Source of the DNA: Nannocystis bainbridge
GTDB lineage: Bacteria; Myxococcota_A; Polyangia; Nannocystales; Nannocystaceae
DNA length: 64,000 nt
Direction: 5' to 3'
NCBI RefSeq assembly: GCF_028368995.1
Contig: NZ_JAQNDL010000003.1
Coordinates: 1,056,001 to 1,120,000, forward strand
Shown: piece by piece, positions 9,333 to 62,292 of the stretch
Position numbering within the stretch: position 1 is the first letter of the stretch
How the letters are laid out: each line of letters begins with the position of its first letter
Position numbers and translations under genes: made by a program
The notes under the pieces: model-generated
Databases searched by the model: none
What the model saw: the letters and a program-made list of their open reading frames with translations, nothing else
Told to the model about the DNA's origin: nothing

Positions 9333-10373
9333 ATGCGCGCTCGCATCGGCGTCCTCCTGGGCCTCCTGCTCTGCGGCTGTGCCGAGAGCCTCACCCGTCG
9401 CATGGTCCCTGCCGCGCTCGACGAGGGCGTCGGCTTCTTCGAGGACCCCGAGTCGCAGCGCCGCATCGAGCGCCTGATGCTCGACCCGCAGGTGCAGCAC
9501 GCCGCGCGCGAGCTCAGCAAGTCGATGGTCGGCGGCGTCGTCGACGCGGTGACCGACGACGCCCGCCAGGCCGAGCTGCGCGAGGCCTCGACGAAATACA
9601 TCGAGGCCGTCGCCGGCGCCGCCGCTCGCAGCCTGCGCAGCGACCTCGGCCCGGCCGCGGCCGAGGCCGCCCGCCACGCTGTCGCCCAGGTACTGGCCGC
9701 CGGCCTGTCCCCGGAGACACGTCAGGACATGCGCGCCCTGGCCCAGTCGTTGACGCAGGCGACCGTCGACGGCCTGATGGAGTCGGCCGGCCGCGGCCTG
9801 CGCCACCAGCTCGGCCCGGCCGTGCGCGCGGTGATCGAGGACGATCTCGGCCCGAGCCTGCGCACGATGATCGCCCGCGACGTCGCGCCGAGCCTGCGCC
9901 AGGCGCTGGCGACCGAGCTGACCCCGGCGCTGGCTCTGGCCGCGCGCGAGGTGACGCACCAGATCGTGATCGGCGGCCACGACGGCCTCGAGGAGCTGCG
10001 CTTCCGCGAGCGCGCCGGGCAGTTCCAGGTCGATTTCTGGAGCCGCCTCGACGGGCTGCTCCACAAGGGCATGCAGCTCAGCGCGCTCGTGGCGTGGGGG
10101 CTCGGCGCGGTGGTCCTGGTGCTGGCGATCCTGTTCGGTCGCGCGATCGTCCTGCGCCGCCGCCTCGACGAGGAGCGCCTCCGCAGCGAACGCATGCTGC
10201 TCGGGGTGATGCACGGCCTGCAGCAGGGCAGCGACAAGCCCGACATCGAGGCCTTCCTCGCCCACCTGCGCGAGCGCGACCCCGACCTCGCCGACGAGAC
10301 CTTCATGGAGAGCCTGGCCCGCCGCGTGTCCCAGCCCGGCGGCCGCCCCGGCCGACCCCGCCGCCGGCTCTGA
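9333..10373 (+). CDS. Hypothetical lipoprotein with helical repeats and a C-terminal TM helix
   Basis: MRARIGVLLGLLLCGC lipobox; repeated LGPA/LGPS helical units; TM segment ALVAWGLGAVVLVLAILFG. Confidence 0.75.
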   Translation: MRARIGVLLGLLLCGCAESLTRRMVPAALDEGVGFFEDPESQRRIERLMLDPQVQHAARELSKSMVGGVVDAVTDDARQAELREASTKYIEAVAGAAARSLRSDLGPAAAEAARHAVAQVLAAGLSPETRQDMRALAQSLTQATVDGLMESAGRGLRHQLGPAVRAVIEDDLGPSLRTMIARDVAPSLRQALATELTPALALAAREVTHQIVIGGHDGLEELRFRERAGQFQVDFWSRLDGLLHKGMQLSALVAWGLGAVVLVLAILFGRAIVLRRRLDEERLRSERMLLGVMHGLQQGSDKPDIEAFLAHLRERDPDLADETFMESLARRVSQPGGRPGRPRRRL

Positions 10374-10514
10374 GCATGTCCCTTCGGACATGTTTAATCA
10401 GAGGCCCGCCGCCATGTGTCACATGTCCATCAGGACATGTGACGCATGATCGATTGCATCGAGTCCCATGACCCCGCCGGCGACGATTCACATGGCCTCT
10501 CGGACATGTCCATG
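10372..10514. repeat. 14-bp-phased CATG (TGTCC-N4-GGACA) array, three pairs
   Basis: CATG pairs at 10375/10389, 10422/10436 and 10491/10505; near-perfect 36-bp palindrome at 10413-10448. Confidence 0.85.
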
Positions 10515-10684
10515 GAATCACGACGAGCGACGCCTCGCGCTCGCCTCCCCGATGCCGGCGAGCCGCCCCCGAGCTCCGTCGATCCTCGCAGCCTCGCCGC
10601 GCAGAGGCTCACCCACCGGCTCCGGACGGCGTTTGCAGCGAACGCTTGCGCGCGGTGATGCCGGCATGCACCTTCATCGGGCCC

Positions 10685-13600
10685 ATGGCGCTTCGCACGG
10701 CCCGGTCGCCCCGCCTGCTCTCGTTTTCGCGCCGCGCCACGATCGCGGCCCTCGCGGTGCTGACGGGCGGCTGCGGGGGAGACGACGCGTGCGGGTCGCT
10801 CGCGGCCCTGTGCGCCGGCGAAGCGCGCGGGCTCCAGCTCGCCACCCGGGTCACGGGCGCCGTCGCGGTCGACCTCGACGGTGACGGCGTGGTCGAGATG
10901 GTCGCGACCGGCGACCATCTGGGGCGGCAGCTCGTCGTCGGCAGCCGCGGCGGCCGGCGCTCGAGCGTGACCTTCGAGGAGATCCCGGGGCCCGTCGTGG
11001 CGCTGGAGCGCGAGTTCGCGGTGCTGTTCCCTGGCGCGCAGCGAGTGGCGATCTTCGGCCTCGACGGCGACGGGCGGCTCGAGCGACGGCGGGACATCCT
11101 GCTGGCCGATGCCCCGTCCGGGCTCGTCAGCGGCGATCTCGACGGCGACGGCCGGCGCGAGCTGGTCGTGACGATGCGCCAGCTCGGCACGGTCGCGGTG
11201 ATCGATCCACGGACCGGCGACATGCGGACCTACCCCGCCGGCAAGTTCCCCACCGGGCTCGCGCTCGGCGACGTCGACGGCGACGCGCACCTCGACGTCG
11301 TCGTCCTCGGTCGCGCGGCGCTGCAAGTGCTGCGCGGCGGCGGCGACGGCACGCTGAAGCCTCGGCGCGCGAGCCCGGCTCCGGACGACATGACGACGGT
11401 GGTGCTCGCCGATCACGACGGCGACGGCGACCTCGACGCGCTCACGCGCGGCTCCATAGAGGCCGTCGAGCTGCACCGCAACGACGGCGCGGGCCGGTTC
11501 TCGAGCCCCATCTCGCTGCCGTTCGGCGCCACGCAGCTGAGCGGCGCCGGGCTGGCGGCGGCGCCGGTCACCGCCGCGGGCCTGGCCGGCGTCAGCGTCC
11601 CGGGCGGCAGCGTGCTCACCACCTGGTTCGGCAAGGGCGCGACCTGGCTCGGGCACAGCGACGTGATGCTGCACCGCGAGTCGACCTGGGTCGGCGGCGG
11701 CACGGACAGCGGGCTGCTCGTCGGCGGCGAGGGGTTCGTGACGCCCTACGCGTACGCCCGCGGCCGGCTGCCGGTCGAGATCGGGCAGGCGGGGGATATC
11801 CACGTCACCGATGACGAGCGGGTGCTGGCGACCGGCGATCTCGACGGCGATCACCTGCTCGACGTCGTCGCCGCGGGAGCGGGGCAGGTCGGGGTGTTCA
11901 GCGGCCGCGCCGAGCCCGGGCTGCAAAAAATCACCTCGTGGTCGAGCTCGACGACGTGGGCGCTGACGATCGCCGAGCTGACCGGCGACGGCCGCCCCGA
12001 CGTCCTCGTGATGGGTGAGCAATGGCTGGCCGTCGCCATGGGCGGCGAGCTCGGGCCAGCGCCGCCGCAGGCGCCCGAGATGGTGGATGCGACGGCGCGC
12101 GAGTTGACGCCGCTGCGCACGGGGCCGGACACGCCGGCCGTCGTGGTCGCCGTGGCCGCCAACCACGCCGTCCTGCCGGCGGTGCTCGCTCCGGCGGTGC
12201 TGCTGCGATTCACCGGCGACGGCCATCTGCTTGACGAGCGTGTGCTCGGCGAGGGGCTCGCCGCCGCCCGGGTGCTCGCAGTCGACTTCGACGACGACGG
12301 CGTCGACGAACCATTGATCCTGGGCAAGCGCGACGGTGCGATCGTGCTGGTGCACGCGAGCCCCGACGGCGACGGTTACAGCCTCGGCGCCGAGCACGAC
12401 CTCGCGGCGCTGTCGGGCGTGCCCGCGGAGAAGTTCTACATCGATCGCCTGGCGGTGGGGGACCTCGACGGCGACGGCGCCCCGGAGGTCGTGGCCTCGT
12501 CGTCCGAGGGCGCGGTGGTGGTGTCGGGGCTGGCCGACGACGCGCCGACAGCGACCGTGTCGTCCGAGCTCGGCGTGCCGACCCACCTGCGCGACCTCGA
12601 CGGCGACGGCCGGCTCGACTCGGTCGCGCTCGGCAGCTACAGCTACGGCTTCCGGCGCGGGCTCGGCGACGGCCAGTTCGACGACTCGCAGGCCCCTGTG
12701 GCGATCGCCGGCGGCGCCGTGATCGAGCTGGCGGCCCGACCCGACGCGCAGTTCGACATGGTCACGCTCGGAGGCGCCGGGCTGCGGATCCACCTGCTCC
12801 GCGACGTCATGCGCCCGGCCGAGGCCGACCAGCCGTTCAACTTCCTCGGGCCGGTCGCCGAGCTCGCGTCCGCCGACATCGACGGGGACGGCCACGACGA
12901 CCTCGTGACCGCGTGCCGGCTGGAGAGCGGCGGCGTGGCGGTGGTGTGGGGCAGCGAGGACGCCCGCCTGGACCGCAGCGACGGCGAGAACGGCAGGAGC
13001 GAGAACCGCGGGCTCGCGATCGGCGATCTCGACGGCGACGGCCTGCCCGAGGTGCTTTCGGCGGCCAGCGGTTACTGGGTCCGGATCCACGACGTCGGCC
13101 GCGAACCCGCGGGCAAGTACGCGTCCCTGGACTTCCTCCACTCGCTCGAGCGCGCCGAGGACCTGGCGATCGACGACGTCGACGACGACGGCCTGCCGGA
13201 CATCCTCGCGCTCGCGTACGCCCGCGAGCCGGAAGAGCAGGTGATCCTGTACGTCGCGTACGGCACCGAGCGGCTGAAGTTCGCCCCGTGGCAGCCGGTG
13301 GCGGCGGTGCCCGGGCTCAAGCGGGGCGGGCTCGAGGTCGGCGACGTCGACGGCGACGGCGGGCTCGATCTGCTGATCCGCGCGCCCGTGGAGCACCCAT
13401 CCCTGCTGCTCCGGTCCCAGGGGCCGCGCTCGTGGACCGAGCCGCAGGCGCTGCCGGGGACCACGGCGCTGTTCGGCCCGCGCGACGCCGACGGGCGCGT
13501 CGAGCTCGTCTCGCACGAGGGCACGACGGTCTACCGCCACGTCGACGGCGACCCCGCCCGGCGGGTCGCGCTCGTGCAGCACGAGCTGCTGGTGGAGGGC

Positions 13601-13831
13601 GCGCTGCGGCAGGTCGGCGACGCTGACGGCGACGGTCGCTACGACCTCGTGACCACCGGGCCCGGCGCCACCTATGTGTGGCCGCTCGGCGACGGCGAGC
13701 CGAGGCCGATCGAGCTCTTCGACGAGAAGCTCGCCGCGGTCCAGTTCCCCGACATCGACGGCGACGGCCGCCCGGACATCGTCGGCCTGGACACCCAGGG
13801 CCGGATCGTCGTCCGCACCAGCCGCCGGTGA
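10685..13831 (+). CDS. Large FG-GAP/VCBS repeat lipoprotein
   Basis: Lipobox LTGGC and more than 15 GDLDGDG/DVDGDG Ca-binding repeats. Confidence 0.88.
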   Translation: MALRTARSPRLLSFSRRATIAALAVLTGGCGGDDACGSLAALCAGEARGLQLATRVTGAVAVDLDGDGVVEMVATGDHLGRQLVVGSRGGRRSSVTFEEIPGPVVALEREFAVLFPGAQRVAIFGLDGDGRLERRRDILLADAPSGLVSGDLDGDGRRELVVTMRQLGTVAVIDPRTGDMRTYPAGKFPTGLALGDVDGDAHLDVVVLGRAALQVLRGGGDGTLKPRRASPAPDDMTTVVLADHDGDGDLDALTRGSIEAVELHRNDGAGRFSSPISLPFGATQLSGAGLAAAPVTAAGLAGVSVPGGSVLTTWFGKGATWLGHSDVMLHRESTWVGGGTDSGLLVGGEGFVTPYAYARGRLPVEIGQAGDIHVTDDERVLATGDLDGDHLLDVVAAGAGQVGVFSGRAEPGLQKITSWSSSTTWALTIAELTGDGRPDVLVMGEQWLAVAMGGELGPAPPQAPEMVDATARELTPLRTGPDTPAVVVAVAANHAVLPAVLAPAVLLRFTGDGHLLDERVLGEGLAAARVLAVDFDDDGVDEPLILGKRDGAIVLVHASPDGDGYSLGAEHDLAALSGVPAEKFYIDRLAVGDLDGDGAPEVVASSSEGAVVVSGLADDAPTATVSSELGVPTHLRDLDGDGRLDSVALGSYSYGFRRGLGDGQFDDSQAPVAIAGGAVIELAARPDAQFDMVTLGGAGLRIHLLRDVMRPAEADQPFNFLGPVAELASADIDGDGHDDLVTACRLESGGVAVVWGSEDARLDRSDGENGRSENRGLAIGDLDGDGLPEVLSAASGYWVRIHDVGREPAGKYASLDFLHSLERAEDLAIDDVDDDGLPDILALAYAREPEEQVILYVAYGTERLKFAPWQPVAAVPGLKRGGLEVGDVDGDGGLDLLIRAPVEHPSLLLRSQGPRSWTEPQALPGTTALFGPRDADGRVELVSHEGTTVYRHVDGDPARRVALVQHELLVEGALRQVGDADGDGRYDLVTTGPGATYVWPLGDGEPRPIELFDEKLAAVQFPDIDGDGRPDIVGLDTQGRIVVRTSRR

Positions 13832-13898: not shown

Positions 13899-14047
13899 GG
13901 GCGTGTCCGCGTCGGCATGTCCTCGGAGCCACGTTCGCGGGGCGCCCCGCCCCCGCGCCTCGGTCTTCTCATGTCTTCAAGGACATGATCTCGAGAACAT
14001 GCCCTCGAGAACATGCCCTTCCAGACATGCCCCTTCGGGCATGTCCC
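13899..14047. repeat. 14-bp-phased CATG array (longest: 6 units plus 3 degenerate units)
   Basis: CATG at 13970, 13984, 13998, 14012, 14026 and 14040; CGTG/CATG/CACG at 13902/13916/13930. Confidence 0.92.
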
Positions 14048-15067: not shown

Positions 15068-15102
15068 CCGCGTGTCTTTTAGGACAGGTCCGTGCGGACG
15101 TT
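15068..15102. repeat. Degenerate 14-bp-phased motif between divergent genes
   Basis: CGTG/CAGG/CGTT at 15071/15085/15099; TGTCT-TTTA-GGACA core. Confidence 0.6.
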
Positions 15103-15137: not shown

Positions 15138-16283
15138 ATGGCGCGCCCGCTCCTCGTCGCCTGGGCGCTCGCGCTCAGCGCCTGCTTCACCGGCGGATTC
15201 CTGTCCGGCCAGCCCTGCACCGCCGACAGCGACTGCGGCCCGAGCCTGCGCTGCGAGGCCGGCGTGTGCGGCGGACCGACGGCGCAGACCAGCCCGACTT
15301 CGACCTCGACGGCGACCGCGACGCCGACCTCGACCACCACCGCGGGCGACGCGACCACCGTCGAGCCGACCTCGACTTCGACGACCACGACCACCGGCGA
15401 CACCACGCTGACGCCGCTGACGAGCAGCACGACGTCCACCACCGAGGACGAGACCACCGGCGGCGGCTGCGGGATCGGCCGGTGCAAGGACCTCGACATC
15501 CTGTTCGTCGCCGACAACTCGCCGAGCATGTTGATCAAGACCCTGATCCTGCTCGACTTCATCACCACCTTCGGCACCGAGATGATCCCCGAGCTGCGCA
15601 AGGCCTGCAGCGTGCACCTCGGGGTGATCACCACCGACGCCTACCCGCACAACCCGCCCGAGTGCCAGAAGATCGGCGCGCTGGTGTCCGCCGACAACAA
15701 CGAGAACGCCTGTGTGCTCGCCGAGGGCAAGCCCTACGCGACCATGGCCGACCTCGACATGCCGCTCACGCTCGAGTGCCTGTTCAACATCGGCTCCGAC
15801 GGCGACAACGACGAGCGCCCGGTCGACGCCCTGTTCTCGACAGTCGGCGCGCTCGACCCGTCGCTCAACCCCGGCTGTAACCAGGGCTTCTACCGCCCGG
15901 GCGCGTTCCTCACCATGGTCCTGGTGGCCGACGAGGACGACGACAACAACGACGCCCAGGGCCACGACGGCTCCGAAGAGATCTTCGAGTCGTTCTGGGC
16001 CGGTTCGCTGGCCAACCTCAAGCCGACCGGGATCGACGACCTCTACATGGTCGGCCTGCTCGGGGACCCCAAGATGGGCCAGCAAGCCTGCCCGTGGAAC
16101 CCGAGCGAGGAGCCCGACGGCTTCGGCACCGAGACCACCCCGAAGCTGCGCGGTTTCATCCAATCGCTGCCCCCGGAGCGCTACGCGCTCGGCACGCTGT
16201 GCAACGTGGTGCCGGGCGGCACCGCGTTCAAATCGCTGATGGAAGAGTTCCGCAACGAACTGCGCGTCGCCTGCGGGGCGTGA
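15138..16283 (+). CDS. Lipoprotein with Thr-rich linker and vWA-like domain
   Basis: Lipobox LSAC; Cys-rich N-terminus; Thr tract; DILFVADNSPSM (MIDAS DxSxS), HLGVITTD, LVADEDD. Confidence 0.8.
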   Translation: MARPLLVAWALALSACFTGGFLSGQPCTADSDCGPSLRCEAGVCGGPTAQTSPTSTSTATATPTSTTTAGDATTVEPTSTSTTTTTGDTTLTPLTSSTTSTTEDETTGGGCGIGRCKDLDILFVADNSPSMLIKTLILLDFITTFGTEMIPELRKACSVHLGVITTDAYPHNPPECQKIGALVSADNNENACVLAEGKPYATMADLDMPLTLECLFNIGSDGDNDERPVDALFSTVGALDPSLNPGCNQGFYRPGAFLTMVLVADEDDDNNDAQGHDGSEEIFESFWAGSLANLKPTGIDDLYMVGLLGDPKMGQQACPWNPSEEPDGFGTETTPKLRGFIQSLPPERYALGTLCNVVPGGTAFKSLMEEFRNELRVACGA

Positions 16284-16318
16284 GCGGCGCGGGCTGGCGT
16301 TGCGGTATCGTGATCGAC

Positions 16319-18664
<2,346 letters not shown>

Positions 18665-18749: not shown

Positions 18750-18822
18750 GCTGTCCCTTCATACATGTCGAAAGAAACATGTCTGTGAGCCCATGCCCCT
18801 CAGGGCATGTCCTCTCGAACAC
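18750..18822. repeat. 14-bp-phased CATG array (4 units)
   Basis: CATG at 18764, 18778, 18792 and 18806 between convergent genes. Confidence 0.9.
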
Positions 18823-21397: not shown

Positions 21398-21633
21398 CGG
21401 TGCATCGTCGACAACGAGGCGGGCGACGTCAAGCCGCGACCCCGCGCGTGCGCGGTCGTCTGGCCCGAGGGACAGGTGATGAAGAATCGTGGACGGGCGC
21501 CGGGGGACGGAGGCCTCGGTCGCCCTCGACGCGCCGCGTGCACCCGCGAGCGAGCAGCGCTCGCATGCGGCGACTCCCCGCGAACGCGGACATGGCGGAG
21601 GCGCGCACCTGTCCCGGGGGACAGCGAGCGCGT

Positions 21634-24060
21634 TCAGCTCTTCGGCACCAGCGCCGCCGCGCGGACCGGGTCGAGGCCGGCGAGGCGGGCCAGCGCCGCG
21701 TCGACGATCGCCTTCTCGGCCGGCTGGGCCTTCGGCGCGCTGCGGACGTGGCCCTCGAGGCAGCGGGCCGCCAGCTCCGGCTCCCACGTCTCGAGCTGTT
21801 GCCCGTCGATCTCCGCGACCAGCCCGGCGAACAGCGAGCGGGCCAGGCCCATCTCGCCGCCGTCGAGGCACGCCTCGGCCAGCTCGACGCGGCGGAGGAA
21901 GCGGGACCGGCCGCCGGCCGCCGACTGCACACGCGCGGCTCCGAGGCGCAGGCCCTCCTCGCGCTTGCCGCGGAGCAGGCCCTTGATCTGCGCGATCGCG
22001 GCGTCGTCGATCCCGCTGGCCACCGGCGCCGCGATCACGATCTGCGCCGGCCCGCCCGCGGCCACGGCCACCGGCGCACCGCCACCACCACCGCCACCGC
22101 CGCCGCCGCCGCCGCCGAGCGCCTCGCGCTCGAGCAGCGTCCGGGTCGCGTCGTTGCACAGCGGCGCGCCCGAGTTGTCCTTCAGGTCGAAGATCTTCGG
22201 CAGCCGCGTCAGCAGGGCGCCGACCTCGGCCAGCAGGCCGCGCAGCGCCGGGTCGTGATCGGCCCCGAGGTTCTTCAGCGCCTCGACGCTGTAGCGGTGC
22301 AGGTCGAGCGTGAAGCGGTTCATCGGCAGCAGCGACTCGCTGTGCTCGACCAGCTCGGCCCACTTGCCGGCGTTCATCAGCGCCTCGAGGCGGTTGCGTT
22401 CGCCCTCGGGCAGGCCGTTGATCGCCGTGTTGCCGTCGGGCCGCGTCGGCGGCGGCGCGGCGATGTAGATCCACAGGCCCGAGCGCAGCAGCCGGTAGGC
22501 CAGCGCGTCGCTGGTCTTGGCCCGCCGCAGCGCGTGCCCCAGCTTGACCAGCTCCTCGCCGGTGTTGCGCAGGAACCGGTCGACCGCGGCCAGGTCGGCC
22601 GTCGGCGCGGCGGCCACCGTCTTGGGCGGCTCGATTACCGGCGCCGGCTTGGCCGGGCTGGCCTGAGGGACAGGTGGCGGCGCCTGCTGCTGCTGTTGCT
22701 GCTGTTGCGGCGGCGGCGGCGGCGGGGCCTCGACCTTCGGCGGCGGCGGCGGTGGCGGCGGCGCGGCCGGCTTGGGCGGCTCGGGCGCGGGGATCGTCAG
22801 CAGCAGCTGGTCGATCGACTGCAGCATCAGCCGCAGGTTGGGCGCCTGGTCGGCGTAGCGGGCCCGCGTCACCTGCTGCAGCCGCGTCGCGCTGTCCTTG
22901 AGCTGCTCGATCGCCGCGCGCTCGCTCGGCTTCGGCTGCCACGCCGCCAGCTCCGGCTCGATCTGGTCGAGCACCCCGCGCAGCGCCCCCGCGCGGCCGC
23001 GCAGGCGGGCCGCCGGCGGGAACGCGGTGTCCCAGAACGTGTCCGCGACCTCGGCGACGATCGCCAGGCCGAGCGCGAGGCCGGCGATGCCGCGCGTCTT
23101 GAAGCGCGCCAGCGCCTGGTGGCACACGACCCGCAGGTCCTTGGCCTGGGTCTTCAGCACCGTGTCGGCGTCGCGCACGATCGCCGCCCAGTCGATCGCG
23201 CCGCCGGTCGGCGACTGCAGCTTGTCGACCTCGGCCAGCAGGGTCTGGTACTCGGGCGACTCGGTCGGGTCGCGCCCGGCCGGGTTCGGGCCGACGATCG
23301 GCACCAGCCACGGGCCGGCGATGTCCTTCGGGGTCGGCTTCGGCGGCGGCTCGGGCGGCGCGGCCACCGGCGGCGGCGCGGCGGCCTCGGGGGCCTGGGC
23401 GGGCGGCGGGGCCGCGGGCGCGGCGGATGGCTGTTGGGACATGTCCGACGGGACCTGTCCCGAAGACTCTTCGGGCTGCGCCTCGGCCTTGGGCTCGGGC
23501 GGCAGGGTCGCCTGGATGCTGTCGAGGAGGTCGGTCCACTCCTTGAAGGAGGGCACGTGGTCGCCGAGCTTCTCGCGGGCGCGGCCGCGGAGCTGCTTGC
23601 TGGCGGTGACGAGGGCGGTGATCGCCGCGCGGTCGGACACCTGCGGCGTGTAGCTCTGCAGCCCGGCGGCGGCGTGCTCGAGCAGCCACTTGAGCGCGGT
23701 GCCGCGGCCCTTGAGGCGGGCGACCGGCGGGTACATCGTGTCCCAGAAGCGGTCGAACAGGCCGTCGACGACGAGGACGGCGACGGCGAGGCCGTGGATC
23801 CCGCGGGTCTTCTGCAGGGCGAAGCCGAAGTAGGCGGCGACGAGCAGGTCCTTGGCGACCTTGCCGAGGATCTCGCGGCCGAGGCTCTCGACGCGCGGCC
23901 AGCCGACGGCCTCGCCGATCGGCGAGTTCTCCTTGTCGACCTCGAGCCGCAGCTCCTGGTAGCGCTCGTCGGTGTTGGGGTTCTTGCCGCCCGGCTCGGC
24001 GGCGGAGATCGGCGCGAGCAGAGCCTCGGCCTCCTTGATGAACACCTCGGCGATCGCCAC
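21634..24060 (-). CDS. tssA: T6SS TssA with two ImpA_N domains and a VasJ-like C-terminus
   Basis: LLAPIS..PGG...YQELRLEVDK...AKDL...FWDTMYPP and a second WLVPI..PAGRD..YQTLLAEVDKL...AKDL...FWDTAFPP; C-terminal GRSRFLRRVELAEAC...LETWEPEL. Confidence 0.9.
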   Translation of the reverse strand: MAIAEVFIKEAEALLAPISAAEPGGKNPNTDERYQELRLEVDKENSPIGEAVGWPRVESLGREILGKVAKDLLVAAYFGFALQKTRGIHGLAVAVLVVDGLFDRFWDTMYPPVARLKGRGTALKWLLEHAAAGLQSYTPQVSDRAAITALVTASKQLRGRAREKLGDHVPSFKEWTDLLDSIQATLPPEPKAEAQPEESSGQVPSDMSQQPSAAPAAPPPAQAPEAAAPPPVAAPPEPPPKPTPKDIAGPWLVPIVGPNPAGRDPTESPEYQTLLAEVDKLQSPTGGAIDWAAIVRDADTVLKTQAKDLRVVCHQALARFKTRGIAGLALGLAIVAEVADTFWDTAFPPAARLRGRAGALRGVLDQIEPELAAWQPKPSERAAIEQLKDSATRLQQVTRARYADQAPNLRLMLQSIDQLLLTIPAPEPPKPAAPPPPPPPPKVEAPPPPPPQQQQQQQQAPPPVPQASPAKPAPVIEPPKTVAAAPTADLAAVDRFLRNTGEELVKLGHALRRAKTSDALAYRLLRSGLWIYIAAPPPTRPDGNTAINGLPEGERNRLEALMNAGKWAELVEHSESLLPMNRFTLDLHRYSVEALKNLGADHDPALRGLLAEVGALLTRLPKIFDLKDNSGAPLCNDATRTLLEREALGGGGGGGGGGGGGAPVAVAAGGPAQIVIAAPVASGIDDAAIAQIKGLLRGKREEGLRLGAARVQSAAGGRSRFLRRVELAEACLDGGEMGLARSLFAGLVAEIDGQQLETWEPELAARCLEGHVRSAPKAQPAEKAIVDAALARLAGLDPVRAAALVPKS

Positions 24061-24083
24061 GGCTACCTCCTATTCCCCTCGGC

Positions 24084-34566: not shown

Positions 34567-34577
34567 ACCTGTCCGTA

Positions 34578-34713
34578 CGGACAGCTCCCTCCCGCCCCGC
34601 GCGATCGCCTGACCCTCGAGTCAGGTGGTCGCGCGCTCGCGTTGCTCCCGCCCCCGCGCGATCGCCTGACCCTCGAGTCAGGTGGTCGCGCGCTCGCGTT
34701 TGCCCGGACAGCT
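34578..34713 (+). repeat. Tandem pair of ~56-bp hairpin units flanked by 9-bp direct repeats (REP/BIME/MITE-like)
   Basis: Units at 34589-34643 and 34645-34700, each with a 16-bp stem CGCGCGATCGCCTGAC/GTCAGGTGGTCGCGCG; CGGACAGCT at 34578 and 34705. Confidence 0.85.
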
Positions 34714-35025: not shown

Positions 35026-35064
35026 ACGCATGTCTTATGAGACATGTTTCAATGGACACATGAC
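35026..35064. repeat. 14-bp-phased CATG array
   Basis: CATG at 35029 and 35043, CACA at 35057. Confidence 0.75.
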
Positions 35065-37393: not shown

Positions 37394-37440
37394 ATCATGC
37401 CGAGCGATAGGACATGTTCACAAGAACATGTCTGTTCGGA
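37394..37440. repeat. 14-bp-phased CATG array
   Basis: CATG at 37413 and 37427 (GGACATGTTC-ACAA-GAACATGTCT). Confidence 0.8.
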
Positions 37441-38409: not shown

Positions 38410-39775
38410 CTTCGTCCTCCTCGGCGTCTTCGCCGGACTGCACGCGGATCCCGGCGCGCGCGAGCTCCTCGCGGATCGCTCGCCCGGCCGCCGTGCGGAA
38501 CACCTTGCCCAGACCCTCGTCGCCGTCGCCGAACACCGACTCGTAGCGCTCCTCGAAGCGGCGCCACAGCGCCCCCGCGCGGGTCGGCCAGGCCGCCGTC
38601 ACCGAGCGCTCGATCTCCCGCGGCGACAGCGTCTCGCCGACCTTCTGCCCGCCGCTCACCGTCCCGCGCAGCGCCCCGCGCAGGTGGGCCATCGCCGCCG
38701 CGAACACCTCCGCCAGCTGGTGCGCCCGCTCCTCGCGGGTCGCTCGCCAGTCGAGCAAGTAGCGCAGCAGGTCCGCGTCCGACTCGGCGATCAGCAGCGG
38801 GTTCTCGTCGCCGTCGACGCGCACCCCGAGCTCGCCGCCCTGGCGGTGCATCAGCTCCTGCAGCTCGACGGTGGCGACCGCGAAGGCCCGCAGCGCGGCG
38901 ACGCAGCGGTCGAGGAAGCGGCGGGTCTCGTCGACGTTGCCGGGCGGGCGCAGGCCCTCGAGCAGCTGCTCGGCCGCCTGCGCGACCGCCCCGAGCTCGG
39001 CCTGCTGATAGAACTCGGCGCCGCCGTGGTCGAGCGCGGCCGGGCCCTCGCTACCTGTCCCGAAGGACAGCGGCGGGAACTCGCGCTGCAGCAGCAGCGC
39101 CTCGCCGCGGTCGCGCCCGGTCGACAGCTCGGCCATCGACTCGCCGAGGGCCGCGTCCCAGGCCATGTGGCCCTCGCGCAGCTTCTCGTACAGCGGCCGC
39201 AGGCGCAGGATCGCCTGGTGCAGCCGCGACAGGTTCATCTGCTGCGTCCCGCCCTCGGGCATCAGCGACGGCGGCTCGTCGCCGTCGCCGAGCTCGCCCT
39301 GCGCCGACCGGCGGTCGCGCATGTGCAGCTCGTCCGGCGGCGTCGGCCCCGGCGCCCCGCCGCGCGGGCGGGCCCCGCGAGGAGCTGGCTCTTCGAACAG
39401 GTCCGGAGGGCCAGATTGCTGCTGTTGCTGCGGCTGCTGGGCGCCCTCGACCTTGTGCTCGATCAGCAGCTCGACCGGGCCGATGGCGATCTTGACGCGG
39501 CCGCGGACCTCGACCCGGCCGCCGGACGCGACCCGCTGGCCGTCGACGCTGAGGCCGTTGGCGCCGCCGAGGTCCTCGACGCGGGCGCCGCGGGCGTCGA
39601 ACTTGGCGACCGCGTGCCACGACGACACGAACTTGTAGGGCAGCTGCAGCTCGTTGCCCGGGTCGCGACCGATGCGCACCGGGCCGCGCTGGAACTCGTG
39701 GCGCTTCGAGCGGTGCTCCTCGGTGTCGATCACCGTCACGACCAGGCTGAACTTCGGGACCTGTCCTTTGATCAA
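38402..39775 (-). CDS. tagH: T6SS-associated FHA protein (TagH/Fha-like)
   Basis: FHA motifs IGRDPGN, VSSWHA, GGANG; C-terminal ENPL...HLRGALRG...LSPREIE...LWRRFEERY. TTG start overlapping the tssG stop is inferred. Confidence 0.8.
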   Translation of the reverse strand: MIKGQVPKFSLVVTVIDTEEHRSKRHEFQRGPVRIGRDPGNELQLPYKFVSSWHAVAKFDARGARVEDLGGANGLSVDGQRVASGGRVEVRGRVKIAIGPVELLIEHKVEGAQQPQQQQQSGPPDLFEEPAPRGARPRGGAPGPTPPDELHMRDRRSAQGELGDGDEPPSLMPEGGTQQMNLSRLHQAILRLRPLYEKLREGHMAWDAALGESMAELSTGRDRGEALLLQREFPPLSFGTGSEGPAALDHGGAEFYQQAELGAVAQAAEQLLEGLRPPGNVDETRRFLDRCVAALRAFAVATVELQELMHRQGGELGVRVDGDENPLLIAESDADLLRYLLDWRATREERAHQLAEVFAAAMAHLRGALRGTVSGGQKVGETLSPREIERSVTAAWPTRAGALWRRFEERYESVFGDGDEGLGKVFRTAAGRAIREELARAGIRVQSGEDAEEDEDA

Positions 39776-43097: not shown

Positions 43098-43122
43098 TCA
43101 CATGACCAATCGGACAGGTTCT
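43098..43122. repeat. 14-bp-phased motif pair upstream of tssE
   Basis: CATG at 43101 and CAGG at 43115 (TGACC-AATC-GGACA). Confidence 0.55.
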
Positions 43123-43406
43123 GAAATTTGGCCGGAGGCCGCGGCCCGACGCCATGACTCTGGCGAACGAAGCGGAGCGCGGGCCCGCCCCGATCTGCCT
43201 CCGCGCCTCCTCGCGGCGTCGACGCGGAGGCGGCGGCGCGCCTCGCCGGGGCGCCTCGCGGATCTCCTCGCACACGCGGCTCCGCGCCTCGCCCCCGCGC
43301 CGGACCGGCCCCGGCGCCGCGATCTCGGCGCCGTCGGTCCGCGCTCCGCCGCGACGCGCTCGCTCGCGGCGCCGCCAAAGGCGATCGGCCGGGCCGGTCC
43401 ACCCAC

Positions 43407-43456
43407 CACCCTGTCCCGAAGGACATGTCCGAACGCTCACTCCGTCCGGACATCCA
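43407..43456. repeat. 14-bp-phased motif array
   Basis: Perfect TGTCC-CGAA-GGACA at 43412-43425, followed by TGTCC. Confidence 0.8.
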
Positions 43457-43480
43457 GCCCTCCACCGGCTCGCTACGCGC

Positions 43481-43888: not shown

Positions 43889-43949
43889 GGTGGTTCTCCT
43901 CGGCGAGCGTAACCCACGCCGGCCCGGCGGGGCAACCACCGGGGCTCCG

Positions 43950-44001
43950 AGGACATGTCTCCATGAACATGCTCCAAAGCACATGCTCCAAAAGCCATGC
44001 C
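43950..44001. repeat. 14-bp-phased CATG array (4 units)
   Basis: CATG at 43954, 43968, 43982 and 43996. Confidence 0.9.
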
Positions 44002-44305
44002 GTCATCGATCCTGCCTCCTCGCTATGATCGCCAATGGTGGGACCATCGATCGACTCGCATCGACCTCCCGGCTGCGCAATGATGGCAACCGGCGCAACG
44101 CCTCGGCCGGACTCGCGCCGAGCGCGAGCTGGGTCGCCGGATCGGGGTTCTCTCGCTCGGGCGAGTCCGCCGCCGCTCGCCGGTATCGCGCACTCGACAT
44201 TGCCGGCGCCCCGGTGCCCGCTCCCCGATTCAGGACTTCCGACGCGCCCACGACAAAGCACCCCGCGCTGGAGTACCGTGGCCTGGCTCGTCCGAGCCGA
44301 CTCGC

Positions 44306-46744: not shown

Positions 46745-49700
46745 ATGGCGCTCGACTCGGATGCTCTCCCCAGCCGCTCGGGTCGGCTGCACGTGCTCGC
46801 CGGTGGCGGCGAGATGGGCGCCCGCATGCGGGAGATCGACTGGGCGGCCACGCCGCTCGGCCCCGTCGACGCCTGGCCGCAGAGCCTCAAGACCTGCGTC
46901 CGCATCATCCTGACCTCGCTCCAGCCGATGTTCGTCTGGTGGGGCGACGACCTCATCAATCTTTACAACGACGCCTACAAGTCGATCGTCGGCGGCAAGC
47001 ACCCGGAGGCGCTCGGCCAGCCCGCCTCCGTCGTGTGGCGCGAGATCTGGGATCAGGTCGGCCCGCGCGCCGCCTCGGCGATGCGCCTCAACGAGGGCAC
47101 CTACGACGAGGCCCTGCTGCTGATCATGGAGCGTTACGGCTACCCGGAGGAGACGTACTACACGTTCTCCTACAGCCCGGTGCCGAACGATCAGGGCGGG
47201 ACCGGCGGCATCATCTGCGCCAACACCGACGACACCCAGCGGATCCTCGGCGAGCGCCAGCTCGCGCTGCTGCGCGAGCTCGCGGCCCGCACCGCCGACG
47301 CACGCACCTGGGCGGAGGTATGCGCTCGCGGAGCGGCGTCGCTGCAGACCAACCCCAAGGACCTGCCGTTCGCGCTGATCTACATCGCCGACGCCGACCG
47401 GCGCCGCGTGCAGCTCGCGGGGGCCGCCGGGCTCCCGCCTGGCCACGCCGGCGCGCCCGAGTTCGTGTCGACGCTCGAGGACTCCGTGTGGCCGTTCGCC
47501 GAGGCGCTACAGGGCCACGAGCGCGTGGTCGAGCTGCCACCTGTCCTCAAGGACATCCCGTCCGGCGCCTGGCCGCGGCCGCCGACGCACGCCGTCGCGC
47601 TGCCGATCTCCCCGTCGGGCGAGACCGGCCGCGCCGGGGTCCTGATCGTCGGGCTCAACCCGTTCCGTCAGCTCGACGACAACTACCGCGGCTTCTTGCA
47701 GCTGGCCGCCGGGCAGCTCGCGGCCAGCATCGCCAACGCGCTGGCGTACGAGGAGGAGCGGCGGCGGGCCGAGGCGCTCGCCGAGCTCGATCGCGCCAAG
47801 ACCATCTTCTTCAGCAACGTCAGCCACGAGTTTCGCACCCCGCTGACGCTGATGCTCGGCCCGCTCGAGGACGCGCTGTCCTCGGCGCAGCGCCGGCTCG
47901 TGGGCGCCGATCTCGACACCGCGTACCGCAACGCCGTCCGCCTGCTCAAGCTCGTCAACGTGCTGCTCGACTTCTCGCGCATCGAGGCCGGCCGGATCCA
48001 GGCCTCGTACGAGCCGACCGACCTGGCGGCGCTGACCACCGACCTGGCGAGCGCGTTCCGCTCGGCCATCGAGCGCGCCGGGCTCGTCTTCACCGTCGAT
48101 TGCCCGCCGCTGCCCGAGCCGATCCACGTCGACCACGACATGTGGGAGAAGATCGTGCTCAACCTGCTCTCGAACGCGCTCAAGTTCACGTTCGAGGGCA
48201 CGATCGCGGTCGCGCTGCGCCTGCACGGCGACCAGCTCGAGCTGGCCGTGAGCGACACCGGCACCGGCATCCCCGAGCACGAGCTGCCGCACCTGTTCCG
48301 GCGCTTTCATCAGGTCCAGGGCGCGCGCTCGCGGACGCACGAGGGCTCGGGCATCGGGCTCGCGCTGGTCCACGAGCTCGTGCGCCTGCACGGCGGGACG
48401 CTCCACGTCACCAGCGAGGTCGGCGTCGGCACCACGTTCACGGTCGCGATCCCTCGCGGCCACGCGCACCTGCCCGCCGATCGGCTGGGCGCCCGCCGCA
48501 CCCAGGTCTCGTCGGCGACCGGCGCGGCGCCCTACGTGCAGGAGGCGCTGCGCTGGCTGGCCGGCCCGCAGCAAGACGACGACCTCGGCGAGGACGCGCT
48601 CGGCCCGGCCTCCGATCCGGGGCTCGACGCCGGACCGCCGGCGCGCATCCTCCTCGCCGACGACAACGCCGACATGCGCGACTACGTCGGCCGCGTGCTG
48701 CAGCAGCGGTGGATCGTCGAAGCCGTGCCCGACGGCGCCGTCGCGCTCGCGACGGCCCTCGATCGCCCGCCCGACCTCGTCTTGACCGACGTCATGATGC
48801 CGAACCTCGACGGCTTCGGCCTGCTCCACGCGCTGCGCGAGGACCCGCGCACGCGGCGGATCCCGGTGCTGATGCTGTCGGCGCGCGCCGGCGAGGAGTC
48901 GCGCATCGAGGGCCTCGAGGCCGGCGCCGACGACTACCTCGTCAAGCCGTTCTCCGCCCGCGAGTTGGTCGCCCGCGTCGCCACCCACCTGCAGATCGCC
49001 CGCCTGCGCGCCGTCGCCGAGCACGAGCGCGCCAAGCTGTACGACCTGTTCATGCAGGCGCCCGTGCCGATCGCCGTGTTCGTCGGTCCGGAGCACCGCT
49101 ACGAGGTCGCCAACCCGCCGATCTGCGAGATGCTCGGGCGCCCGGAGCTGGTCGGCAAGACCATGCGCGAGGCGTTCCCGGAGATCGGCGAGCACGCCGT
49201 GATCGCCTCGCTCGACGCCGTGCTGGCGACCGGAGAGCCGGTCCACGTGTTCGAGCTCAACATCCCGCTCCTGCGCCACGGCGCGATCCGGGACGCTTAC
49301 TTCAACTACGTCGCCCAGCCGATCCGCGACCCCAGCGGCGCGGTCACCGGCGCCATGGTCGTCGCCTTCGAGGTCACCGAGCAGGTGCTCGCGCGCCACC
49401 GCGTCGAGCGGCTGTCCGAGGAGCTGGCCCTCTCCAACAAGGAGCTCGACCAGTACGCCTACGTCGCCTCGCACGACCTCAAGGCGCCGCTGCGGGGGAT
49501 CGCCAGCCTGTCGCAGTGGATCGAGGAGGCGCTCGGCGACAAGCTCGACGAGGAGTCGCAGACGCACATGCACCTGCTGCGTCGGCGCGTGTTCCGCCTC
49601 GAGACACTGATCGACGGGATCCTCCACTATTCGCGCGCCGGCCGGGTCCGCGTCGACGCGACCACCGTCGACACCGGCCAGCTGCTCGCCGAGGTGGTCG

Positions 49701-50104
49701 AGCTGCTGTCCCCGCCGCCCTCCGCGCGGATCTCGATCGCCCCGGGCATGCCGACGCTGACCACCGAGCGCATCCCGCTCCAGCAGGTGTTCCAGAACCT
49801 GATCGGCAACGCCCTGAAGCACGCGCACCGCGACGACATCCAGATCGCCGTCACCGGCCGCGACGCCGGCCAGCTCTACGAATTCTCGATCCGCGACGAC
49901 GGGCCGGGGATCGCGCCGGAGTTCCACGAGCGGATCTGGGGCCTGTTCCAGACCCTCGAGTCGCGCGACAAATTCGAGGGCGCCGGGATCGGGCTGTCGG
50001 TCGTCAAGAAGATCGTCGAGAGCCGCGGAGGCAGCGTCGCCCTCGAGTCGCGACCCGGCGCGGGCGCGACGTTCCTCGTGCGCTGGCCCAAGCGCTCCGG
50101 CTGA
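46745..50104 (+). CDS. Hybrid sensor histidine kinase (PAS/GAF-HK-REC-PAS-HK)
   Basis: SHEFRTPL, NLLSNALKF, DTGTGI, GSGIGL; REC LLADDN..DVMMP..KPF; second H-box SHDLKAPL with NLIGNALK and GAGIGL. Confidence 0.95.
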   Translation: MALDSDALPSRSGRLHVLAGGGEMGARMREIDWAATPLGPVDAWPQSLKTCVRIILTSLQPMFVWWGDDLINLYNDAYKSIVGGKHPEALGQPASVVWREIWDQVGPRAASAMRLNEGTYDEALLLIMERYGYPEETYYTFSYSPVPNDQGGTGGIICANTDDTQRILGERQLALLRELAARTADARTWAEVCARGAASLQTNPKDLPFALIYIADADRRRVQLAGAAGLPPGHAGAPEFVSTLEDSVWPFAEALQGHERVVELPPVLKDIPSGAWPRPPTHAVALPISPSGETGRAGVLIVGLNPFRQLDDNYRGFLQLAAGQLAASIANALAYEEERRRAEALAELDRAKTIFFSNVSHEFRTPLTLMLGPLEDALSSAQRRLVGADLDTAYRNAVRLLKLVNVLLDFSRIEAGRIQASYEPTDLAALTTDLASAFRSAIERAGLVFTVDCPPLPEPIHVDHDMWEKIVLNLLSNALKFTFEGTIAVALRLHGDQLELAVSDTGTGIPEHELPHLFRRFHQVQGARSRTHEGSGIGLALVHELVRLHGGTLHVTSEVGVGTTFTVAIPRGHAHLPADRLGARRTQVSSATGAAPYVQEALRWLAGPQQDDDLGEDALGPASDPGLDAGPPARILLADDNADMRDYVGRVLQQRWIVEAVPDGAVALATALDRPPDLVLTDVMMPNLDGFGLLHALREDPRTRRIPVLMLSARAGEESRIEGLEAGADDYLVKPFSARELVARVATHLQIARLRAVAEHERAKLYDLFMQAPVPIAVFVGPEHRYEVANPPICEMLGRPELVGKTMREAFPEIGEHAVIASLDAVLATGEPVHVFELNIPLLRHGAIRDAYFNYVAQPIRDPSGAVTGAMVVAFEVTEQVLARHRVERLSEELALSNKELDQYAYVASHDLKAPLRGIASLSQWIEEALGDKLDEESQTHMHLLRRRVFRLETLIDGILHYSRAGRVRVDATTVDTGQLLAEVVELLSPPPSARISIAPGMPTLTTERIPLQQVFQNLIGNALKHAHRDDIQIAVTGRDAGQLYEFSIRDDGPGIAPEFHERIWGLFQTLESRDKFEGAGIGLSVVKKIVESRGGSVALESRPGAGATFLVRWPKRSG

Positions 50105-58355: not shown

Positions 58356-58400
58356 ATGACTCTCGGGACATGTCTAAACAGGCATGTCCCGAGAGACACC
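58355..58400. repeat. 14-bp-phased CATG array / palindrome
   Basis: CATG at 58369 and 58383 in TCTCGGGACATGTCTAAACAGGCATGTCCCGAGA. Confidence 0.85.
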
Positions 58401-60418: not shown

Positions 60419-60461
60419 TTGTCTCCAAGGACATGTTCGAATGAACATGTCCTGAGAGACT
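60418..60461. repeat. 14-bp-phased CATG array / palindrome
   Basis: CATG at 60432 and 60446 (GGACATGTTC-GAAT-GAACATGTCC). Confidence 0.85.
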
Positions 60462-60480
60462 CCTCGGCACCGCGGCGCCC

Positions 60481-61357: not shown

Positions 61358-62260
61358 GTGGATAGCAGCCGCCTCGACCTCAACCTGCTCGTCGCGCTCG
61401 ACGCCCTGCTCGCCGAACGCAACGTGACGAAGGCCGCCCGGCGCCTGGGCCTCAGCCAGCCCGCCTTGTCGGCCCAGCTCCAGCGGCTGCGCGACCTGCT
61501 CGGCGACCCGCTGTTGCTGCCAGCGCAGCGCGGCATGACCCCGACCGCGCGCGCGCTCGAGCTGCAGGCGCCGCTTCACGACGCGCTCGACGGCGTGCGC
61601 GCCGTGCTCACCGCCGGCGCCGGCTTCGACCCCGCCACCGCCGCCCTGACGGTCGCCATCGCCGCCTCCGACTATGTGCAATACGCCCTGCTCATGCCGC
61701 TCGCCCTCCAGCTCCGCCGCGAGGCCCCCGGCGTGCGGCTGGCCTGGCGGGCCCTCGACGCCGCCCAGCTCGCCGCCCAGGCCGAGCGCGGCGACGTCGA
61801 CCTCGCCTTCCTCACCCCCGAGACCGCGCCCGAGCAGCTGCGCAGCCGCAAGGTCCTCGACGAGCGCTACGTCGTCATCGTCCGCCGCGACCACCCGCAC
61901 GTGTCCGGCCCTATCGATCTCGACGGGCTGTGCGCGCTCGACCACGTCGTCGTCAGCCCGCGCGGCGGCGGCTTCGCGGGCCCCACCGACGCTGCCCTCG
62001 CCAGCCACGGCCGCGAGCGCCGCGTGGTCCTCTCGGTGCCCTCGTTCCTCATGGTCCCCGAGCTGGTGGCCCGCTCCGACCTCGCCGCCCTGGTCCCCGA
62101 ACGCATCGCCCGCGACCGCGCCGACCGCCTGCAATTGCTCGAGCCCCCGATCGCCGTCCCCGGCTTCGCAATCGCCATGGTCTGGCACCGCCGCGCCGCC
62201 AAGCACCCGGCCCTCACCTGGCTGCGCGAGCGCGTGCGCGCGTTCGCCAGAGGCGCCTGA
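61358..62260 (+). CDS. LysR family transcriptional regulator
   Basis: LDLNLLVALDALLAERNVTKAARRLGLSQPALSAQLQRLR; divergent from the oxidoreductase. Confidence 0.96.
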   Translation: MDSSRLDLNLLVALDALLAERNVTKAARRLGLSQPALSAQLQRLRDLLGDPLLLPAQRGMTPTARALELQAPLHDALDGVRAVLTAGAGFDPATAALTVAIAASDYVQYALLMPLALQLRREAPGVRLAWRALDAAQLAAQAERGDVDLAFLTPETAPEQLRSRKVLDERYVVIVRRDHPHVSGPIDLDGLCALDHVVVSPRGGGFAGPTDAALASHGRERRVVLSVPSFLMVPELVARSDLAALVPERIARDRADRLQLLEPPIAVPGFAIAMVWHRRAAKHPALTWLRERVRAFARGA

Positions 62261-62264
62261 TCAT

Positions 62265-62292
62265 CGAGACATGCCCGAGAGGCCATGTCTGA
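62265..62292. repeat. 14-bp-phased CATG pair
   Basis: CATG at 62270 and 62284, just after the LysR stop. Confidence 0.75.

Follow-up and report, generated by a model that had tools for sequence, protein, structure and literature searches.

A 14-bp dyad forms dispersed arrays in exact register at gene ends in Nannocystis bainbridge

A phased dyad in a 64-kb window

We analysed 64,000 nucleotides of the Nannocystis bainbridge genome (contig NZ_JAQNDL010000003.1, positions 1,056,001 to 1,120,000; the whole stretch is called the window, and positions in it count from its first letter). Here a short motif, the dyad TGTCC-N4-GGACA, recurs both as isolated modules and in arrays with an exact 14-bp phase. 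An earlier note, made from the sequence alone, had drawn attention to CATG cores spaced by 14 bp and to eight perfect copies of the dyad. Every set of CATG coordinates that it gave was confirmed, and the eight copies start exactly where it had placed them, at 10377, 10424, 18280, 21610, 34570, 39056, 43412 and 47542; shuffled sequence led us to expect 0.06, in agreement with the note's hand estimate of about 0.05 per 64 kb. The pattern CATG-N10-CATG occurs 19 times, compared with 0.52 +/- 0.73 in 100 shuffles, none of which reached 19. These pairs start at 10375, 10422, 10491, 13970-14026 (five pairs from six CATG), 18764-18792 (three pairs from four CATG), 35029, 37413, 43954-43982 (three pairs), 58369, 60432 and 62270. 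The decamer pattern RRRCATGYYY-N4-RRRCATGYYY, allowing up to 2 mismatches, gave 20 matches where 0.10 were expected. Sites that had been set apart as CAGG/CCTG variants proved to be perfect or one-mismatch modules (15073, 21610, 34570 and 43103) whose flanks read C...G in place of CA...TG. Tandem Repeats Finder calls only 13983-14032 among the window arrays, which are thus not ordinary tandem repeats, and an Rfam scan of the window found no family at gathering score.

The elements were annotated without strand and lie as follows. Three two-unit elements come after a plus-strand gene that ends at 10373. The first (GAGCATGTCC-CTTC-GGACATGTTT, 10372..10395) starts 2 nt past the stop of that gene by frame analysis of G+C at third codon positions (GC3) and is predicted to fold into an 11-bp hairpin (-14.6 kcal/mol, z = -6.3). 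The second (10419..10442) surrounds the perfect module that starts at 10424, with the gene end at 10373 on one side and a gene with FG-GAP repeats on the other, and the third (10488..10511) contains a one-mismatch module, TGGCC-TCTC-GGACA, at 10493. An array of six CATG in 14-bp register (13967..14046) fills the convergent gap between a plus-strand gene ending at 13831 and a minus-strand gene ending at 14048, its last unit adjoining the stop codon of the latter. An isolated one-mismatch module, TGTCT-TTTA-GGACA (15073..15086), is one of the CAGG/CCTG variant sites, in an ambiguous gene context. The plus-strand gene 15881-18664 carries a perfect module within its coding sequence (18280..18293), in an indel-rich stretch with abundant Pro, Glu and Lys, and about 100 nt past its end at 18664 stands an array of four CATG with a terminal one-mismatch module (18761..18821).

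The next elements accompany a type VI secretion system (T6SS) cluster. A perfect isolated module (21610..21623) lies 11 nt downstream of the stop of the minus-strand TssA/ImpA gene (21634-24069), and at least one module follows this stop in every relative, at differing distances and with differing loops. Another perfect isolated module (34570..34583) begins 4 nt past the stop of a plus-strand gene ending at 34566; it is predicted to form a hairpin of -8.7 kcal/mol and is found at the same place in four of four relatives, with identical stems and varying loops (GTAC, GCAA, GCGA). A two-unit element (35026..35049) follows in the intergenic stretch from 34567 to about 35135. A further one, GGACATGTTC-ACAA-GAACATGTCT (37410..37433), sits about 30 nt beyond the low-coordinate end of a conserved minus-strand T6SS block that starts at about 37463; it is missing at that spot in three of four relatives, and the fourth has other modules nearby. 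The perfect module at 39056..39069, within coding sequence of the T6SS block, is identical in three of five named Nannocystis species, has one stem change in two, and is lost in a metagenome-assembled genome (MAG) of 75% identity.

Beyond this block we found a one-mismatch module, TGACC-AATC-GGACA (43103..43116), a perfect module followed by a further TGTCC in sequence specific to the host genome (43412..43425), and an array of four CATG (43951..44002), positioned either after the open reading frame (ORF) 43154-43912 or upstream of a gene at about 44084, which is not present at the corresponding place in named relatives. A perfect module (47542..47555) falls within a hybrid histidine-kinase gene (46733-50104). 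Two CATG units with a one-mismatch module (58366..58398) begin 11 nt past the end of a plus-strand gene at 58355, modules at 60420..60452 fill the 62-bp convergent gap between a P450 gene ending at 60418 and a minus-strand gene ending at 60481, and a last two-unit element (62267..62290) starts 7 nt past the plus-strand gene end at 62260. The description of the sites as intergenic therefore suits most of them, the exceptions being 18280, 39056 and 47542, which lie within coding sequence.

Several other features of the window accompany these elements. The T6SS cluster (21634-43290; TssA/ImpA, TssM/IcmF and TssF by Pfam) is 93-95% identical to four relatives, its flanks are 79-89% identical or unalignable, and the segment 18850-21520 is missing in two of the four. 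At the place corresponding to window positions 21500-21634, several relatives have dyads 7 nt apart (GGACA-N7-TGTCC, e.g. GGACAtgtcacaTGTCC) rather than abutting, a spacing that is rare in the host genome (19 cases). Directly after the module at 34570 there is a 57-bp tandem duplication (34589-34700; 2.0 copies, 98% match) that is single-copy in relatives.

Scale and grammar of the motif in the genome

The host genome comprises 11.05 Mb in five contigs at 71-72% G+C. It contains 1,987 perfect copies of TGTCC-N4-GGACA and 956 of the decamer GGACATGTCC, and sites matching nine of the ten stem bases number 4,258, compared with 201 for a reversed control pattern. Peaks in CATG self-distance, anticipated at 14 and 28 bp, were seen at 14, 28, 42, 56 and 70 bp (3,736, 2,073, 1,586, 751 and 383 pairs) over a background of about 60-130, or about 250-320 at other multiples of 3. 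Chaining exact CATGs yielded 2,066 arrays: 1,265 of two units, 328 of three, 213 of four, 159 of five, 75 of six and 22 of seven, with a maximum of 12.

The spacing rules are strict. With x=4, TGTCC-Nx-GGACA is found 1,987 times; any other x between 0 and 17 gives 0-19 copies. For GGACA-Nx-TGTCC the count is 956 when x=0 and drops to 11-18 for x=1-3. Both the spacer length and the abutment are therefore held exactly. Favoured distances between elements are multiples of 14 only (485, 305, 232, 128 and 64 at 14 to 70 bp), with the single exception of a minor 36-bp repeat family. Dyads with an N4 centre only, joined by abutment only, at multiples of 14 only, are what a cooperative lattice of dimer operators would display. 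Isolated elements are mostly of the N4 type (1,145, compared with 196 of the abutting decamer type), and from this and the spacing counts we take the 14-bp dyad as the primary unit. CATG, and hence the p53-like decamer, is the junction of two abutting dyads, and abutment gives the 14-bp phase. Of the two forms that the earlier note had offered as the core, TGTCC-N4-GGACA thus stands, and RRRCATGYYY is a product of adjacency.

The extended consensus is cATGTcc-N4-ggACATg, although only about half of the perfect isolated modules carry the flanking bases that complete CATG. When nine stem bases are held constant, the tenth agrees with the consensus at frequencies of.90 for T,.988 for G,.68 for T,.89 for C and.74 for C, and the mid-stem position tolerates all three other bases. 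Spacers are near-random, the commonest 4-mer accounting for 131 of 3,736, and have 54-55% G+C compared with 71% in intergenic DNA. Inner pairs match at.43/.58/.57 in arrays of three or more units and at.59/.73/.57 in arrays of two; units in longer arrays are thus individually weaker, as cooperativity predicts.

A simple tandem repeat or microsatellite was rejected, since adjacent spacers are identical in just 75 of 1,670 cases and Tandem Repeats Finder makes the single window call given above; the same observations bear out the view, already put forward from the window, that the arrays are unlike slippage microsatellites. Tandem repeats with one dyad per unit do exist, of 36 bp and about 80 bp, at G000:C2:1185895-1186111 and G000:C2:995658-996053, and the 36-bp family gives rise to peaks at 36, 72, 108 and 144 bp among the distances between elements.

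Perfect sites are spread evenly, at about 18 per 100 kb on all five contigs (2-43 per 100-kb bin). Their density does not change at the two GC-skew switch points, from which alone, because the assembly is in five contigs, the positions of origin and terminus are deduced; it dips in islands and bins of 69% G+C. This distribution speaks against a positioning factor of the Noc, SlmA or MatP kind, which had been proposed, and the recombinase named beside it gained no direct support. The GC skew of the host is strong, about +/-0.08 overall and +/-0.13-0.17 at neutral sites, and gene orientation shows no skew bias in the genes sampled (493 vs 484; 143 vs 133).

Placement relative to genes

Genes were called with our own crude GC3-based ORF caller, which returned 6,255 genes covering 74% of the genome; it over-extends 5' ends and misses genes, and all gap-type and intragenic counts inherit that. 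Of the 2,066 arrays, convergent gaps hold 770, tandem gaps 681 and divergent gaps 139; another 475 are inside called ORFs and one is at a contig edge. The genome as a whole has 1,277 convergent, 3,208 tandem and 1,069 divergent gaps. Among gaps of 20-500 bp, at least one nine-of-ten element is present in 469 of 813 convergent (58%), 453 of 1,897 tandem (24%) and 73 of 636 divergent gaps (11%), with densities of 7.0, 2.4 and 0.8 elements per kb. An element lies within 150 nt of the stop of 1,855 out of 6,253 called genes. The motif is thus dispersed over the genome, as had been said, and its arrays are also concentrated directly 3' of stop codons. The idea of promoter operators was dropped: element-rich 'divergent gaps', listed in search of an autoregulated regulator, were mostly gaps of more than 1 kb with genes that the caller had missed.

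Intrinsic terminators were rejected as well. Downstream of 331 oriented arrays there was no enrichment of T, and canonical terminators form a separate class. Strict canonical terminators were found in 192 of 5,147 3' regions of protein genes and elements in 1,798; in the 83 regions with both, the element comes after the terminator in 30, before it in 16 and overlaps it in 37. tRNA genes use ordinary terminators of their own, with a GC hairpin and a T-run, and have an element within 120 nt downstream in 5 of 102 cases. About 28 tRNA genes, identified with aragorn, are crowded into about 2.6 kb at G000:C2:2556665-2559233, at lower G+C than the rest of the genome, and this cluster may be a mobile- or phage-derived tRNA array.

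Copies within genes and evolution between species

About one quarter of the elements lie within genes. Trimming 300 nt from the start and 60 nt from the end of each coding sequence leaves 5.9 Mb, which contain 521 perfect dyads, compared with 11-16 after synonymous shuffling, 193 decamers compared with 14-23, and 283 pairs of CATG 14 bp apart compared with 33-52. Among 542 intragenic dyads examined, 328 are flanked on each side by 150 nt that look coding in a shared frame. The dyads occur in all three frames and encode diverse peptides; the copies are enriched in permissive coding stretches and in the preferred-codon frame.

Conservation was assessed only where flanks were coding-like or coding blocks aligned. 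The stems of the module at 18280 are identical in all four relatives that span the site, despite indels and substitutions in the flanks; a rare CCT codon is retained and one loop base differs in one relative. The interspecies comparison covers 31 intragenic sites and one relative, G005, of which 900 kb were fetched and 398 kb aligned to the host genome at 80% identity or more. In these dyads 296 of 310 stem positions are identical, compared with 1,048 of 1,240 in flanks (Fisher p = 3.5e-8) and 99 of 124 in loops, and the stems of 24 of the 31 are intact. At third-codon positions, 112 of 118 are identical in stems and 346 of 440 in loops and flanks (p = 1e-5). The stems are therefore under selection other than for protein coding.

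Intergenic arrays seldom align between species, though their positions are stable. In 72 orthologous unaligned gaps of the host and G005, elements are present in both species in 22, in one only in 10 and in neither in 40 (odds ratio 42, p = 1e-9), and unit numbers are correlated. Blocks of synteny in the window break at gaps that bear arrays. The gap between the genes ending at 10373 and 14048 has arrays in all relatives examined, with different unit numbers and spacers, and extra DNA between the parts of the array: about 300 bp in two relatives and a 3.5-kb FG-GAP gene in the host. This gene (10472-13831, FG-GAP repeats by Pfam) is missing at the orthologous place in the relatives examined, where the flanking genes are separated by an array or about 300 bp, and copies 72-79% identical are located elsewhere in two relatives. 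It looks like an insertion between parts of the array.

Taxonomic distribution

The pattern of four phased CATG matches all 10 genomes of the same genus, with 869 matches in the host, 409-527 in five large genomes and 1-13 in fragmented MAGs. Outside the genus it matches none of eight genomes of the same family and none of 12 from other families, and the motif was not found in the 46 family, about 250 other class and 120 phylum genomes searched. In a class-wide sample of 301 genomes, all five of the genus matched; 13 others gave 1-10 matches each, and those among the rows listed were due to different tandem units of 7 or 14 bp or to unrelated sequence. A double-dyad pattern gave no match in 120 other genomes of the phylum and 16 in the host. 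In an unbiased scan for enriched spaced inverted 5-mers in 200-kb samples, the motif ranked first in the host (113x expectation) and in G005 (132x), and nothing exceeded 7-11x in 200 kb from each of two sister genera, a sample from which rarer motifs could escape. Viral contigs gave no exact match to a 25-base double-module pattern, which is strict, so that this is weak evidence. The TssF protein encoded in the window is 97-99% identical to five named Nannocystis records. Across the genomes searched, the motif family is restricted to Nannocystis and genus-wide. In a sister-genus genome (G031:C1:1-200000), we noted a 7-bp microsatellite with GGTT, TTCT and TCTC and self-distance peaks at 7, 14 and 28 bp.

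We found no published description of the element in the searchable literature, the coverage of which excludes supplementary files and subscription journals; the suggestion that no bacterial element of this structure has been described is thus upheld to that extent. Among the matches listed, papers containing the string GGACATGTCC deal with p53 or with eukaryotic topics unrelated to it. The feature itself is real and far from random, spans the genus and, to the extent that it can be searched, is undescribed. Its bias to the 3' side of genes and to convergent gaps, its hairpin potential, its genus restriction, its selected intragenic copies and its correct primary unit are additions to the earlier note.

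A duplex-binding site or a single-strand hairpin

Conservation of the stem is base-specific and covariation is weak. At stem positions 3 and 12, the non-pairing single variants C:A (381), T:C (451) and G:A (335) each outnumber the compensated pair C:G (146). Beyond the consensus, the flanks of the stem show neither complementarity nor a covarying extension. Together with the exact N4 centre and the exact abutment, this makes sites for a cooperatively binding protein, as the earlier note had thought, the best reading, without the positioning role it had in mind. Overall the pattern reads as a duplex-binding site whose transcribed or unwound form may also be under mild selection for pairability.

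Searches for a matching protein family in the host genome gave the following. The RAYT/Y1 transposase domain PF01797 had no match (three candidates scored, genome 90.5% complete), and the control was positive in 6 of 14 genomes. The PadR domain PF03551 had no match among 13 candidates scored, with the control positive in 14 of 14 genomes; either the family is truly absent from this 11-Mb genome or the search misses it here. The p53 domain PF00870 had no match either, which carries little weight since no control genome was positive; as far as could be tested, then, the likeness to p53 sites is coincidental, as had been supposed. There are 13 matches to HTH_Crp_2, none of which was singled out as a candidate binder, and the half-site spacing of the module equals that of FNR-type sites.

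Proposed explanation and its rivals

Our leading explanation, which we hold tentatively and rate just short of even, is that the motif provides operator-like sites and lattices for a putative dimeric DNA-binding protein that binds cooperatively and acts as a barrier or organiser at the ends of transcription units. A sequence-specific protein would read TGTCC-N4-GGACA as double-stranded DNA; bound as a symmetric dimer, it would contact half-sites spaced by 9 bp and leave the A+T-enriched 4-bp centre untouched. On abutting sites (GGACA|TGTCC, which makes CATG), dimers would sit side by side, strictly every 14 bp, and build up a cooperative lattice of 2 to 12 units. Such lattices would be placed where they least harm promoters and reading frames, past stop codons and chiefly between convergent genes. 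There they could serve as a two-way barrier, blocking read-through or convergent transcription, or as a supercoil or nucleoid boundary. Transcribed copies could also fold as RNA hairpins. Besides the grammar, the base-specific stems and the weaker units of longer arrays, points in favour of the proposal are the low G+C of the centre, the selection on intragenic stems beyond that for coding, the placement at gene ends and in some cases past canonical terminators, the stability of positions despite sequence turnover, and the genus restriction.

A more ambitious form of this proposal, by analogy, is a genus-specific chromatin system, in which an abundant protein would polymerise on 14-bp lattices at most convergent-unit ends and act as a bidirectional roadblock terminator or topological insulator. 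It would be a counterpart of mTERF/Reb1-type terminators or eukaryotic insulators, and single intragenic sites might be weaker pause or anchoring points. In this full form we consider it unlikely.

Several points weigh against the proposal of a cooperatively bound dimer. Compensated stem pairs are enriched 1.7 to 2.8x over independence (C3:G12 146 vs 86, T4:A11 38 vs 13.5, G5:C10 49 vs 27). Every module is a potential hairpin, and stable RNA folds are predicted for the arrays (z between -3.3 and -6.6). Where the stem is variable, the G variant, compatible with a G.T or G.U pair, stands to the C variant at 71:6 in co-oriented genes and 29:37 in head-on genes, an excess seen on both the sense strand and the G-rich replication strand; neutral loops show replication skew only (+0.18 and -0.15), so the stem excess beyond it hints at selection in a single-stranded state. 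The elements occupy positions like those of terminators or repetitive extragenic palindromic (REP) sequences, the first one mostly 2-40 nt past the stop. Placement itself rests on the crude gene calls and their limited coverage, no binding protein was found, with PadR, whose operators have matching geometry, giving no match, and the barrier function is purely conjectural.

Much of this favours the strongest rival, a REP-like element whose hairpin would act in a single strand. This could be 3' untranslated RNA, where it would protect transcript ends or terminate transcription, or DNA unwound at the replication fork. A factor would recognise the hairpin sequence-specifically and perhaps spread it, and arrays would be the counterpart of clusters of bacterial interspersed mosaic elements (BIMEs). 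The position just past stops, the occupation of more than half of the short convergent gaps, a lineage-specific sequence in thousands of copies and the stable predicted folds all suit it. So do the excess of G.U-type over A.C-type variants relative to both transcription and the replication strand, beyond the skew of neutral loops, the modest enrichment of compensated pairs, and the scarcity of strict canonical terminators after protein genes together with their frequency after tRNA genes. Against this, the middle pair of the 5-bp stem is the least conserved and all kinds of mismatch are common there, and the stem has no covarying extension. Because neighbouring units share CATG, only alternate hairpins can form fully in an array, and a hairpin model does not demand a 0-nt linker. 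Hundreds of conserved copies lie within genes, the element often comes after a canonical terminator where the two co-occur, few tRNA genes have one downstream, and no RAYT was matched. We regard this rival as doubtful.

Well behind it comes a drive-maintained 'self' motif of the kind of DNA uptake sequences, in which a bias of receptor or recombination accumulates copies without local function. Genus specificity, some 10^3 copies, presence in coding and non-coding DNA with a preference for permissive stretches and the preferred-codon frame, even chromosomal density with dips in the atypical 69%-GC regions, and apparent purifying selection on sites that are individually dispensable would all follow. 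Independent sites, however, would not hold exact abutment while their spacers randomise, uptake sequences are not known to be palindromic, and density per base is about 20x higher in non-coding than in coding DNA, by a rough estimate that assumes the coding share. We think this reading improbable.

Slippage fares slightly worse still: the arrays would be a functionless structural by-product, 14-bp units that expand in permissive intergenic DNA and then decay. Unit number at the same gap does vary between species, and some arrays are near-perfect recent duplications, as in eight same-spacer units at G000:C3:1085843 and in window positions 13983-14032. Yet cores are kept while spacers are randomised, intragenic copies are under purifying selection at synonymous sites, and presence at a given gap is conserved between species, so that this reading is already disfavoured. 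The least probable reading takes the phased CATG (or RCATGY) as methylation marks for an epigenetic system. It draws on CATG being the most conserved part of the arrays, with TG and CA the best-kept bases, but CATG arises where two modules meet, the flanks that complete it are missing from about half of the isolated perfect modules, and the available text of the N. exedens genome announcement has no word starting with 'methyl' (PMC5658511).

Lineage-specific dispersed palindromes such as REP and DNA uptake sequences are already known. The present one stands apart by the exact 14-bp register kept despite randomised spacers, the occupation of more than half of the short convergent gaps in genomes of 11-13 Mb, and hundreds of intragenic copies that selection maintains at synonymous sites. 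All this points to a factor acting in trans on thousands of targets. Should that factor be a DNA-binding protein, it would represent a new bacterial way of marking or insulating where transcription units end; a factor working on RNA or single-stranded DNA would instead amount to a RAYT-less system of the REP kind. Whichever holds, the motif can be used as pull-down bait and, as a signature of the host, to assign metagenomic contigs and mobile elements to Nannocystis, and because its density falls in atypical regions it can serve as a marker of foreign DNA within these genomes.

Comparison with known systems

The REP and BIME sequences of enterobacteria and pseudomonads are lineage-specific short palindromes, present in hundreds to thousands of copies downstream of genes or between convergent genes, often clustered, with units in alternating orientation; a cognate RAYT gene, a Y1 transposase of the IS200/IS605 type, goes with them and commonly has repeats on both sides. 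The Nannocystis motif is likewise lineage-specific, present in thousands of copies, outside promoters and 3' of genes. It differs in that its module spans just 14 bp around a free 4-nt centre, its clusters hold to an exact 14-bp register, its stems lack strong covariation, about one quarter of copies are intragenic and conserved, and no RAYT/Y1 was found. On two hallmarks of REP, strictly extragenic location and stems kept by pairing, the observations point both ways: the 3' bias is present, yet perfect copies far exceed expectation in trimmed coding sequence (521 vs 11-16) and are conserved there, and compensated pairs are enriched, yet single mismatches prevail and conservation is lowest at the mid-stem pair. 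Intrinsic terminators share a hairpin-capable sequence a few nt past the stop; here there is no T-run, and the sequence is fixed.

DNA uptake sequences (DUS in Neisseria, uptake signal sequences or USS in Pasteurellaceae) are specific to a genus or family, number about 10^3 copies within and between genes, are frequent behind genes and are conserved between species. None is known to be a palindrome; they are asymmetric and not phased. The Nannocystis motif resembles them as a genus-specific motif of about 10^3 copies in and between genes and differs from them in being symmetric and phased. The p53 half-site consensus RRRCATGYYY is fitted by the junction decamer, whereas the primary unit in Nannocystis is the N4 dyad.

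The sites of Noc, SlmA, MatP, ParB and RacA are dyads of 12-16 bp in tens of copies, confined to origin, terminus or non-terminus regions. They too are scattered, some of them intragenic, and in the known systems they are bound by dimers capable of spreading or bridging; the Nannocystis sites number thousands and are evenly spread, with no macrodomain confinement.

PadR-family operators are described in the available text of one study as carrying the dyad ATGT-N8-10-ACAT (PMC3506622). The Nannocystis consensus cATGTcc-N4-ggACATg contains exactly ATGT-N8-ACAT, so that both are dyads of the 14-bp class, and PadR is a winged-helix dimer; PadR operators are single promoter sites, however, and PF03551 had no match in the host genome. 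Closest in grammar to the lattice that we propose are the met-boxes of MetJ, the iterons of ParG, omega and ParR and the arrays of Fur boxes, in which boxes stand in fixed register, spacers are free or A+T-rich, single boxes are weak and arrays are strong. The Nannocystis arrays share with them short conserved boxes, a fixed register and free spacers. Those systems operate at a handful of promoters or plasmid centromeres, whereas in Nannocystis there are about 2,000 arrays, at gene ends and depleted in divergent gaps.

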